NCBI GenBank assembly: GCA_963793425.1
Contig: CAWCAG010000005.1
Coordinates: forward strand, 1,280,001-1,344,000
Direction: 5' to 3'
Length of the DNA stretch: 64,000 nucleotides
From: an uncultured cyanobacterium
GTDB taxonomy: Bacteria > Cyanobacteriota > Cyanobacteriia > Cyanobacteriales > CAWCAG01
Part shown: positions 32,608 to 33,591 of the stretch, in pieces
Layout of the letters: the number at the start of each line of letters is the position of its first letter
How positions within the stretch are numbered: the stretch's first letter is position 1
Translations under genes and position numbers: made by a program
The notes under the pieces: generated by a model
Database searches by the model: none
What the model was told of the DNA's origin: nothing
Seen by the model: the letters and a program-made list of their open reading frames with translations, nothing else

Positions 32608-32691
32608 AAAGTTCTATTTACCAATTAAATCAGCTATTATTAATAGTACAGCTAGGGGCTGTGGCTCAGTTGGATAGAGCAAGCGCCTCCT

Positions 32692-33542
32692 GAACAATCG
32701 GGCCTCTTGGGGGAAACCCTAAGTAGTGAATGCGGTCAAATTCAAGGAAGCCTAAGTCTGGTCAAACAGAGAGGGTAATCTTGAGCCAAGCTTATAATTT
32801 GTCGATTCGGCAAGTTATTAAGAAGGTGCAGAGACTGGTTGAATGAGAGCTAAAAATGATGGACTATAATGTCTCATCAAAAGTAGAGCAAAGAGGCATT
32901 CTGACCGGGATGTTATTAGGTGCAAGTAGGAGGAATAAACAAAATTTCTACCTCCAACACCTGAATTTGCCAGAGGAATATGTTTTGTTTAAAAAGCAAC
33001 TCCTTGAACAAATCATTCGCAAGCCAGTTAGTCTTCGGGAAGAGAAAAGTAGTAAAGGCGAACCCTTGATACGTTTAGAACCAAAGTTGATTCCTTTAAC
33101 TAGGGTTTTGGTTAAGAGGCTTTATCAAGGAACAACACCTATAATTACAAGTAAGTTCCTGCGTTTTTTAACCCCCCCAGGTATAGCAATTTGGTTTATG
33201 GATAAAGGTTCTAAATCTTTTAAGAAGAAGAACGGCAAGATCCATAGCCTAGAAGTTAACTTCAATACCAATATCTGCCAAGCAGAAAATGAATTGATAG
33301 TAGCTTATTTTGCTGAAGTTTGGGGTTTTAAGTGGGGATTAAGCAAAAGTGGAAAGGCTTACCGTTTAAGGATGGGAACGAAAGAAGGTAAAAGATTTTT
33401 TGATTTTCTTCGTCCCTATATCCATCCCGCTATGCTCTACAAAATAGAAACCTCTTGTCAACATAACGGCCGCCACCTAAAAGAGCTTTTGCTCTGATGG
33501 TGAAGGGATAGTCCAGAGAGTAAGGAAACTTACACAAATCTG
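32692..33542 (+). ncRNA. Group I intron (IC3/Azoarcus-like core with a P7.1 insertion)
   Basis: Preceded by U, ends in G; P1 CCU-GA-ACAA-UC-GGG with U.G; P AAATTCAAGGAA, Q AATCTTGAGC, R GTGCAGAGACT, S AAGGGATAGTCC; P3 GCGGTC/GGCCGC; GAAA-capped P2 and P9. Confidence 0.95.
32856..33497 (+). CDS. Intron-encoded double-motif LAGLIDADG protein (I-SceI-like), catalytic Asp residues substituted
   Basis: Motif 1 ILTGMLLGAS, motif 2 LTPPGIAIWFMDKGS, C-terminal LRPYIHPAMLYKI. Confidence 0.88.
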   Translation: MMDYNVSSKVEQRGILTGMLLGASRRNKQNFYLQHLNLPEEYVLFKKQLLEQIIRKPVSLREEKSSKGEPLIRLEPKLIPLTRVLVKRLYQGTTPIITSKFLRFLTPPGIAIWFMDKGSKSFKKKNGKIHSLEVNFNTNICQAENELIVAYFAEVWGFKWGLSKSGKAYRLRMGTKEGKRFFDFLRPYIHPAMLYKIETSCQHNGRHLKELLL

Positions 33543-33591
33543 AAGCGCTAGGTCGCCGGTTCAAATCCGGCCAGTCCCGTTTTTTCAGTGT

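Follow-up and report, generated by a model that had tools for sequence, protein, structure and literature searches.

The stretch of DNA analysed here, 64,000 nucleotides (nt) of contig CAWCAG010000005.1 from an uncultured cyanobacterium (assembly GCA_963793425.1) and called the window below, contains a tRNA-Arg(CCU) gene interrupted by a group I intron, and the intron carries an open reading frame (ORF) for a LAGLIDADG protein. That the tRNA gene and its group I intron are real we regard as practically certain. New here is the place of the ORF, which lies in an optional hairpin between the intron helices P7 and P3. Judged from comparison with homologous introns, the RNA has the look of a working ribozyme. 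In the protein the metal-binding aspartates of both LAGLIDADG motifs are replaced, and selection has kept the protein after this loss of the cutting residues. We therefore favour the reading of an intron that would be competent in splicing together with a nuclease-dead, selected protein, most likely a maturase, and we give this reading as a whole an even chance.

Interrupted tRNA-Arg(CCU) gene and its group I intron

Two exons of 37 nt each, joined by script, gave a tRNA-Arg(cct) of 74 nt in ARAGORN, with a regular cloverleaf and the anticodon CCU once the insert was removed. The same tRNA-Arg(cct) was called as i(38,851) when introns were allowed, and default ARAGORN called no tRNA anywhere in the 64,000-nt window. 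The 5' exon is near-identical across 43 homologous loci, and CCA is not encoded in the 3' exon. In the whole genome (5.28 Mb in nine contigs) the tRNA-Arg genes called as tct (two), ccg and acg were all uninterrupted. The interrupted gene is the only tRNA-Arg(CCU) gene of the genome, because ARAGORN called cct at this locus alone.

The insert matched the Rfam model RF00028 (Intron_gpI) with 53.2 bits when the window was searched with this covariance model (gathering score 50, E 1.1e-10). In the search of the whole genome this intron was the sole match to the model, there with 47.7 bits, which is below the cut-off. The 3' half of the RF00028 alignment was misplaced because the ORF intervenes. 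The elements of the intron were read directly and checked against 43 homologous introns, and P1, P2, P3, P4, P5, P5a, P6, P7, P8 and P9 were all present (Table 1). The U.G pair at the 5' splice site was found in 44/44 introns and in 24/24 ORF-less homologues, and the intron ends in G33542. At the 110 columns in which 42 or all 43 of the other introns agree, the window deviates three times only, twice by a one-base register shift in the P2 loop and once at the compensated P3 pair C32733-G33472. The third pair of P9 is A-U in the window, one of three such introns against 41 with G-C.

Covariation was tested with 24 ORF-less homologues on an 83-pair structure, to which P7 was added by hand. Paired cells made up 98.6%, as compared to 93.2% in shuffles, and none of 500 shuffles reached the observed value. 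Changes on both sides were found in 27 of the 83 pairs versus 12.8 +/- 2.0 in shuffles (0/500), and in no more than 11 when the partners were slid by one to three columns. Covariation supports the P3-P8 core in this way, with P7 and most of P3 being invariant, i.e., neither supported nor contradicted. P3 gains compensatory pairs when the ORF-bearing introns are added: compensatory types were seen at C32733 and G32734 among the 44 introns, the C32733-G33472 pair of the window being one of them. When all 44 introns are taken together, changes on both sides are seen in 30 of 67 pairs, a count made by own script with no control.

A sequence-only reading of this DNA had proposed two 37-nt exons forming a complete tRNA-Arg(CCU), an 851-nt group I insert directly after the anticodon with a terminal G, all of P1-P9 and GAAA tetraloops, a LAGLIDADG ORF within the insert, and a gene that tRNA scanners would miss. 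The exon coordinates turned out to be exact, with ARAGORN agreeing both on the joined exons and with introns allowed. The remainder is borne out by a search with the group I intron model, as that reading had suggested, by the 43 homologues, by the Pfam assignment given below and by the empty default scan.

Position of the ORF in the intron

Among the ORF-less relatives, whose introns measure 204-319 nt, a hairpin of about 40-80 nt stands between P7 and P3 in 17 of 24 cases, and the other 7 run straight from P7 to P3. Comparison of the homologous loci showed that the same stem is kept in the ORF-bearing introns, where the ORF fills the loop. Because of this position the two strands of P3, and likewise those of P7, are about 640 nt apart, and the final codons of the ORF double as the 3' strand of the hairpin, as P3 and as the start of P8. 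The protein ends in most relatives with a conserved stretch (TSYNxTATT or near), and its stop codon is the UAA within the CCUAA motif of P8. In the window the extra G33457 frameshifts the final nine codons, and the stop is displaced to a UGA at 33495-33497. The shifted tail is common to the two nearest relatives, P0001 and P0002, and is not found in the next two, P0003 and P0004. Residues 202-213 of the AlphaFold2 model have a predicted local distance difference test score (pLDDT) below 50. Going by the model, the sequence of the tail seems to be set by the RNA and not to be needed for the fold.

The start of the ORF varies as well. In the window it opens with two in-frame AUGs (32856 and 32859), of which relatives use the second, and an out-of-frame ORF of eight codons (window 32846-32872) starts 10 nt upstream of the main AUG, within the 5' strand of the hairpin. 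In one sub-group (loci L021 and L059, proteins P0018, P0021, P0026 and P0038) ATA replaces the usual start codon and the protein begins KIDYHV... The frame is there open upstream through P2-P7, and gene callers start at an AUG inside the catalytic core. Within this sub-group L059 keeps Asp in both motifs.

Fold, catalytic residues and selection

The protein belongs to Pfam family LAGLIDADG_2 (PF03161) with 102.5 bits against a cut-off of 25 (E 3e-29), and NCBIfam has no family for it. The AlphaFold2 model, made with 92 homologues, has a pLDDT of 90.1 and a predicted template modelling score of 0.87, and is a monomer with two LAGLIDADG motifs, residues 16-24 and 110-118. The top structural matches in Foldseek were I-WcaI (template modelling score, TM, 0.75) and I-SceI (TM 0.74) at 18-22% identity, the bI3 maturase stood at rank 9, and WhiA was also among the matches. 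The penultimate acidic residue of each LAGLIDADG motif is the metal ligand, as stated in the accessible part of PMC3384342. In the family alignment these two positions are Asp/Asp in the Coleofasciculus copies and Ala/Lys in the window (A23 and K117), without an acidic residue at either. Because the metal-binding Asp of both motifs is lost, the protein is very probably nuclease-dead and no longer cleaves DNA. The sequence-only reading had taken the ORF for a homing endonuclease, which does not agree with these replacements.

The two positions were surveyed in 121 aligned proteins, i.e., 120 representatives and the window. Asp/Asp was present in 34. Motif 1 held Asp in 42 proteins and otherwise V, Q, N, A, K, W, G, S, T, H, E or R, while motif 2 held Lys in 38 and Arg in 20. 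States with one Asp were found too (Asp/Lys, Asp/Arg, Asn/Asp, Ala/Asp). A quick maximum-likelihood tree was built without the two catalytic columns, with the star level set at 95 in the Shimodaira-Hasegawa-like approximate likelihood ratio test (SH-aLRT). It requires no fewer than 12 switches between Asp/Asp and other states. The window falls into a clade of 37 rows without any Asp/Asp member (SH-aLRT 94, below the star level), and a second clade, of 25 rows, also has none (SH-aLRT 89, below the star level). Half of the Asp/Asp rows, 17 of 34, fall into an 18-row clade that belongs to tRNA-Leu introns.

Selection was estimated as the ratio of nonsynonymous to synonymous substitution rates (dN/dS) by the pairwise Nei-Gojobori method (own script), for 20 ORFs with DNA over 196-198 codons, the tail that overlaps the core being excluded. 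For the Asp-less ORFs 31 of 55 pairs were finite, with dN/dS of 0.09-0.25, and dS was saturated in the other 24. Five ORFs with Trp/Lys gave 0.12-0.17 at dS of 0.15-1.0, and since all five read Trp/Lys their common ancestor probably lacked both Asp already. The Asp/Asp ORFs gave 0.08-0.27, a range no different from that of the Asp-less ones. The bootstrap 95% upper limits of dN/dS were all below 0.45. In 19 of 20 ORF-bearing loci the frame is uninterrupted over the folded part. The protein has been kept by selection after the cutting residues were lost. As would be looked for in a maturase, it is encoded in the intron which it would serve, since the ORF lies inside the intron in 22/22 tRNA-Arg loci with context, and the selection on it (dN/dS 0.09-0.25) has been kept independently of the nuclease residues.

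Table 1. Features of the interrupted tRNA-Arg(CCU) gene, in window coordinates.
Feature	Position	Strand	Description	Evidence
tRNA-Arg(CCU) 5' exon	32655..32691	+	acceptor 5' strand, D arm, anticodon stem 5' strand, loop to anticodon CCU (32689-32691)	ARAGORN
Group I intron	32692..33542	+	851 nt; between tRNA positions 36 and 37, after third anticodon base; terminal G33542	RF00028, ARAGORN, 43 homologues
P1	32689..32702	+	exon CCU and intron GA pair with UCGGG; U32691.G32700 wobble at 5' splice site	direct reading
P2	32703..32728	+	GAAA tetraloop 32713-32716	direct reading; 6/9 pairs change both sides (ORF-less homologues)
P3 5' strand	32732..32737	+	GCGGUC; pairs with 33468-33473 across ORF	44/44 cells paired at every pair
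P4-P5-P5a domain	32741..32785	+		8 pairs change both sides (ORF-less homologues)
P6 hairpin	32791..32822	+	13 pairs, one bulged U	direct reading; 5/6 helix pairs change both sides
P7 5' strand	32833..32836	+	GACU, guanosine-binding helix; pairs with 33510-33513	invariant in 24/24 ORF-less homologues
Optional P7-P3 hairpin, 5' strand	32838..32849	+	loop holds ORF	direct reading; compensatory changes in stem
LAGLIDADG_2 ORF	32856..33497	+	213 amino acids (aa), I-SceI-like monomer	PF03161 3e-29; AlphaFold2 pLDDT 90.1; Foldseek TM 0.75 I-WcaI, 0.74 I-SceI
A23 codon	32922..32924	+	place of motif 1 metal-binding Asp	Coleofasciculus copies Asp; profile aligns to Asp of ILGD in I-SceI and I-WcaI
K117 codon	33204..33206	+	place of motif 2 metal-binding Asp	aligns to second Asp of WFMDDGGK in I-SceI
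ORF-bearing hairpin, 3' strand	33452..33462	+	G33457 extra versus homologues, shifts frame of last codons	
P3 3' strand	33468..33473	+	GGCCGC, within ORF	homologous-intron alignments
P8 hairpin	33474..33502	+	contains ORF stop: UGA 33495-33497 here, UAA of homologues at place of 33478-33480	
P7 3' strand	33510..33513	+	AGUC	ORF-less homologue alignment
P9	33520..33533	+	GAAA tetraloop 33525-33528	direct reading
tRNA-Arg(CCU) 3' exon	33543..33579	+	A37 A38, anticodon stem 3' strand, variable loop, T arm, acceptor 3' strand, discriminator G	ARAGORN

Putative role of the protein

The pre-tRNA would splice itself by the standard group I pathway in two transesterifications. Free guanosine would attack after U32691, in the U.G wobble of P1, and the freed exon would then attack after the terminal G33542, giving the 74-nt tRNA. 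On this reading the ORF arrived as a homing endonuclease whose target was the strongly conserved anticodon arm of tRNA-Arg(CCU), and after fixation cleavage would have been lost in several lineages and the protein retained as a splicing helper. The retained job would be that of a maturase, which binds its own intron RNA and helps the split core to fold. Such a core would profit from a protein clamp, because the strands of P3, P7 and P8 lie 640 nt apart and ribosomes cross at the end of the ORF. Shifts from endonuclease to maturase are described for the LAGLIDADG family in the accessible part of PMC3384342, and are documented in fungal mitochondria. For the maturase role specifically, we would put the chance at even or slightly less.

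There are several points which weigh against this interpretation. Firstly, introns with the same core and no ORF are the majority (44 of 50 intron-bearing genomes; 24/24 fetched ORF-less loci), and the ribozyme does therefore not generally need a protein. Secondly, the tail of the window ORF is frameshifted, though its pLDDT in the model is below 50. Thirdly, purifying selection tells of some function and not of which one, and since dS is saturated in many distant pairs only the closer pairs are quantitative. Finally, one ORF-bearing relative, L021 (= L030), no longer has its start codon, shows Asp/Asn at the two motif positions and contains a premature stop, which is an ordinary path of decay.

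Purifying selection without the catalytic Asp would also suit a protein kept for a job other than splicing, either as a sequence-specific DNA binder at the tRNA-Arg(CCU) site, where it might occupy or protect the target of relatives that are still active, or as a regulator. The fold is the one seen in DNA-bound I-SceI and I-WcaI, and the match to WhiA offers a precedent, the N-terminal domain of bacterial WhiA being a LAGLIDADG fold co-opted as a transcription factor (accessible part of PMC3984707). In addition, Lys or Arg at the former metal site, found in 58 of the 121 proteins, would suit contact with the phosphate backbone of DNA or RNA. However, the ORF was found only inside introns wherever the context is known, i.e., in the 22 tRNA-Arg loci and in the tRNA-Leu introns described below. 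A free-standing copy, as expected of a host regulator, was not seen among the loci with context, and no target except the homing site suggests itself. We consider a non-splicing job unlikely.

Less likely still is that the ORF is a dying endonuclease gene without present function, which has stayed intact through short time or repeated transfer. The catalytic residues have indeed been lost in varied ways, L021 has no start codon and a premature stop, the clade of the window has a frameshifted C-terminal tail, and ORF-less introns outnumber ORF-bearing ones by 44 to 6 in the sampled genomes. A cycle of gain, decay and loss is the accepted model, according to the accessible part of PMC1995217. 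Yet the Asp-less ORFs keep dN/dS of 0.09-0.25, with bootstrap upper limits below 0.45, at divergences up to saturated dS, and the clades of 37 and 25 rows hold no Asp/Asp member (SH-aLRT 94 and 89, both below the star level). Neutral decay over such divergence would have broken most of the frames, whereas 19 of 20 loci are uninterrupted over the folded part.

A homing endonuclease or nickase still active on intron-less tRNA-Arg(CCU) through a non-canonical active site would fit the confidently predicted entire fold, a family that clearly began with homing endonucleases and still has Asp/Asp members, and the intermediate one-Asp states, but it is improbable with both metal ligands replaced, one of them by Lys, with the motif acidic residue being the most conserved catalytic feature of the family (accessible part of PMC3384342), and with motif 1 varying freely (A, G, T, V, W, K, N, Q), as at a site that no longer matters.

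Occurrence in cyanobacteria

An even sample of 401 cyanobacterial genomes was searched. A close homologue of the ORF was found in six genomes, that of the window included, and two had distant LAGLIDADG matches. The intron was sought with a DNA query made of exon 1 and the 5' core, and a match had to run from exon base 1 to at least 100 nt into the intron. By this search 50 genomes, again counting that of the window, have a homologous intron at the site, 44 of them without an ORF match. The best 30 of the 50 intron loci were all tRNA-Arg(CCT) with the intron in the same place, 24 ORF-less and six ORF-bearing. Among the matches listed, another 67 genomes are matched over exon bases 1-37 alone, which is the pattern expected of an uninterrupted gene. 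In a scan of one genome per species, 16 loci with a relative of the ORF (58-68% identity) were found in Coleofasciculus, Oscillatoria, Spirulina and cyanobacterial metagenome-assembled genomes, and every one of the 16 ORFs is located within an intron at the same tRNA-Arg(CCT) site.

The protein search gave 157 relatives at E <= 1e-5, and 120 cluster representatives among them are covered here. Many of these are named "DNA endonuclease" or "LAGLIDADG endonuclease" by NCBI. Named relatives come from Coleofasciculus chthonoplastes PCC 7420, Symploca, Lyngbya aestuarii, Laspinema, Oscillatoria acuminata, Phormidium, Desmonostoc, Oxynema, Lusitaniella and Spirulina. The combination of host and site is ordinary, and the ORF-bearing form is a minority, already present in databases under a bare protein name. 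The sequence-only reading had considered the combination of host, site and ORF unusual. For host and site this is not supported, given the 50 of 401 sampled genomes with a homologous intron and the place of this intron type, Arg.5Ug, among the classical ones. The rarity it had expected holds in so far as the ORF-bearing form is the rarer one (6/401), and fails in so far as more than 100 public clusters carry the names LAGLIDADG or DNA endonuclease. Of the alleles which it had proposed to look for across cyanobacteria, ORF-less and ORF-bearing forms were found at the site, and the intron-less form is probably represented by the exon-only matches in the 67 listed genomes.

Relatives in other tRNA genes

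Metagenomes were scanned with the 15 most distant family members as queries, and 80 loci were kept. In L059 and L060 the ORF lies again in tRNA-Arg(CCT) introns. In L057:1174-2115 and L058:1311-2256 ARAGORN found a tRNA-Leu(TAA) split after the first anticodon base, the introns measuring 854 and 861 nt. The proteins of these two loci are 76% and 73% identical to the query P0119, and the clade of P0119 is 51-55% identical to the window protein. Both introns have a group I-like core by eye, and here too the ORF stands between the strands of P7 and P3. L064:1255-2240 is likewise a tRNA-Leu(TAA) split after the first anticodon base, with an 896-nt insert. The inserts of L057, L058 and L064 all carry an Asp/Asp LAGLIDADG ORF related to that of the window. 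L057 and L064 encode CCA, unlike the cyanobacterial tRNA-Arg loci. Among ten metagenome loci RF00028 matched L059, L060, L062 and L065, and it was not scored at E <= 0.001 in L057, L058, L063 and L064, whose ORFs lie in tRNA-Leu or "tRNA-Lys". The latter call, tRNA-Lys(ttt) at L063:711-1664 with an 877-nt insert and a distant (42%) LAGLIDADG_2 ORF, has exons that look doubtful.

Because homologous ORFs occupy the P7-P3 gap in the tRNA-Leu(TAA) introns, the ORF-in-hairpin cassette, or the whole intron, appears to have moved between tRNA-Leu(UAA) and tRNA-Arg(CCU) hosts. A wider proposition joins three parts: that this tRNA-intron family has repeatedly turned its endonuclease nuclease-dead, with Lys or Arg at the metal site, that the intron, and with it the sole tRNA-Arg(CCU) of the host, now depends on the protein to fold a core split by 640 nt, and that the cassette moved between tRNA-Leu(UAA) and tRNA-Arg(CCU). 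Taken as a whole it is tentative, and we would sooner doubt it than accept it. NCBI assigns P0119, a member of the tRNA-Leu-type clade, to Pyrinomonadaceae (Acidobacteriota); the range of the cassette may extend past the cyanobacteria, or a mixed bin may be behind this label.

Genome context and variation in metagenomes

Ten matches to phycobilisome proteins identify the host as a cyanobacterium. Its tRNA-Leu(UAA) gene (G000:C1:117811-117894) is uninterrupted, though this is the classical intron host of cyanobacteria. With introns allowed, ARAGORN also reported a tRNA-Val(cac) with a 335-nt insert (G000:C5:1478838-1479265) and a tRNA-Gly(acc) with a 191-nt insert (G000:C9:707737-707996). Both are probably false calls, there being no group I match at either place in the search of the genome itself. 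The neighbourhood of the tRNA-Arg(CCU) gene is made up of housekeeping genes, i.e., SRP54, PhoH, a thioredoxin-like protein and a P-type ATPase with ArsR, and a phage or island context was dropped on this ground. A scan for promoters and terminators gave nothing above shuffles near the gene, with one promoter-like site, located inside the intron, versus 3.3 expected.

Four DNA runs (Logan contigs), three of them possibly the origin of the sequence itself, cover the stretch with few differences. Some contigs skip the 851 nt. They were considered as spliced product or as an empty allele of the strain, and both were rejected for their other flanks and their 2-5 exon differences. These contigs carry tRNA-Arg genes without an intron that belong to other members of the community. 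Uninterrupted tRNA-Arg(CCU) of this kind, with the 32691/33543 joint, was seen in runs X1 and X4, and potential intron-less targets therefore live alongside the organism. Run X4, a sediment metagenome, also contains a related strain without one base in the P8 loop (33486), and a low-depth contig with 12 substitutions in the 3' part of the ORF (33332-33422). These differences near the end of the ORF are population variation.

Comparison with known introns and proteins

Arg.5Ug is one of the four classical types of bacterial tRNA introns, all marked IC3 in the database cited by Williams (2020, bioRxiv 10.1101/2020.01.27.920355), and it is solely by analogy with this marking that the window intron may be assigned to subgroup IC3. 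In the same work 80,413 bacterial genomes were surveyed, with Cyanobacteria as the group richest in split tRNA genes (0.69 per genome). The Arg.5Ug intron of Agrobacterium and alphaproteobacteria shares with the window intron the host gene, the insertion point, the U at -1, the terminal G and a small tRNA-type core. Compared with this classical form, the window intron stands in a cyanobacterium and has the extra P7-P3 hairpin with its ORF of 213 aa. Classical tRNA-Arg(CCU) introns are reportedly short and free of ORFs. The window intron presumably resembles the IC3 intron of Azoarcus pre-tRNA-Ile(CAU) in its compact core, in GAAA loops on P2 and P9 and in receptor-like CCUAA motifs in P5 and P8. 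The Azoarcus intron sits in another tRNA and has neither an ORF nor a P7-P3 hairpin; its crystal structures are cited in the accessible part of PMC3984707.

The tRNA-fMet intron of Synechocystis PCC 6803 is likewise a cyanobacterial tRNA group I intron with a homing-endonuclease gene. Its product, I-Ssp6803I, is a protein of 150 aa from another tRNA, its endonuclease activity is shown, and it is of the PD-(D/E)XK type, as the sequence-only reading had stated correctly according to Table 1 in the accessible part of PMC1995217, whereas the window ORF is LAGLIDADG_2 with both Asp replaced. I-Ssp6803I is the only tRNA-hosted case in Table 1 of this compilation from 2007, and as far as its accessible part goes, LAGLIDADG genes in bacterial and phage introns are listed there only for introns of large-subunit rRNA. 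In the 23S rRNA intron of Thermotoga neapolitana a LAGLIDADG protein stabilises and activates its own group I intron (accessible part of PMC3984707). This maturase is the functional model that we propose for the window protein, with the difference that the Thermotoga host is rRNA and the activity experimental, while the role of the window protein is drawn from residue loss and purifying selection. The Thermotoga activity is said to have been reported in 2011. I-SceI and I-WcaI have their fold in common with the window protein (TM 0.74-0.75, PF03161) at 18-22% identity, but they come from mitochondrial hosts and keep both Asp, where the window protein has Ala/Lys. The fungal maturases bI3, which is among the structural matches, and I-AniI were also compared.

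Two publications were set aside as precedents. The "group I introns" of 22-49 nt in cyanobacterial tRNA-Arg(ACG), Gly and Lys (PMC5733544) are too short for group I ribozymes and irrelevant here, and PMC4853749 deals with tRNA-Arg(TCT) of sulfur bacteria. A bacterial tRNA intron with a LAGLIDADG gene was not found described in the literature, which was searched without most subscription papers, so that absence is not proven by this. A group I intron with a LAGLIDADG gene is a known pairing; in this host gene it is not in print, as far as searched. The novelty which the sequence-only reading had made dependent on the lack of characterised examples is accordingly kept for the published descriptions, and is limited by the more than 100 public clusters of the ORF family.

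Implications

The loci collected here place the stages of a homing cycle side by side, from intron-less genes, minimal introns and introns with an empty hairpin to those with an Asp/Asp ORF, a one-Asp ORF, an Asp-less ORF under selection and a broken ORF. As a compact natural series they allow one to ask how a selfish endonuclease can turn into an RNA cofactor serving its host. The hosts are culturable bacteria, some of them transformable, unlike the fungal mitochondria where this question has mostly been studied. For annotation, the outcome is that one arginine tRNA gene goes unreported in a default scan and a "DNA endonuclease" ORF is left without its context, and such an ORF without context is also found in Coleofasciculus, Symploca, Lyngbya, Laspinema, Oscillatoria, Spirulina and other filamentous cyanobacteria. 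If the proposed change from endonuclease to splicing helper is true, the family would be a domesticated maturase system in free-living bacteria.

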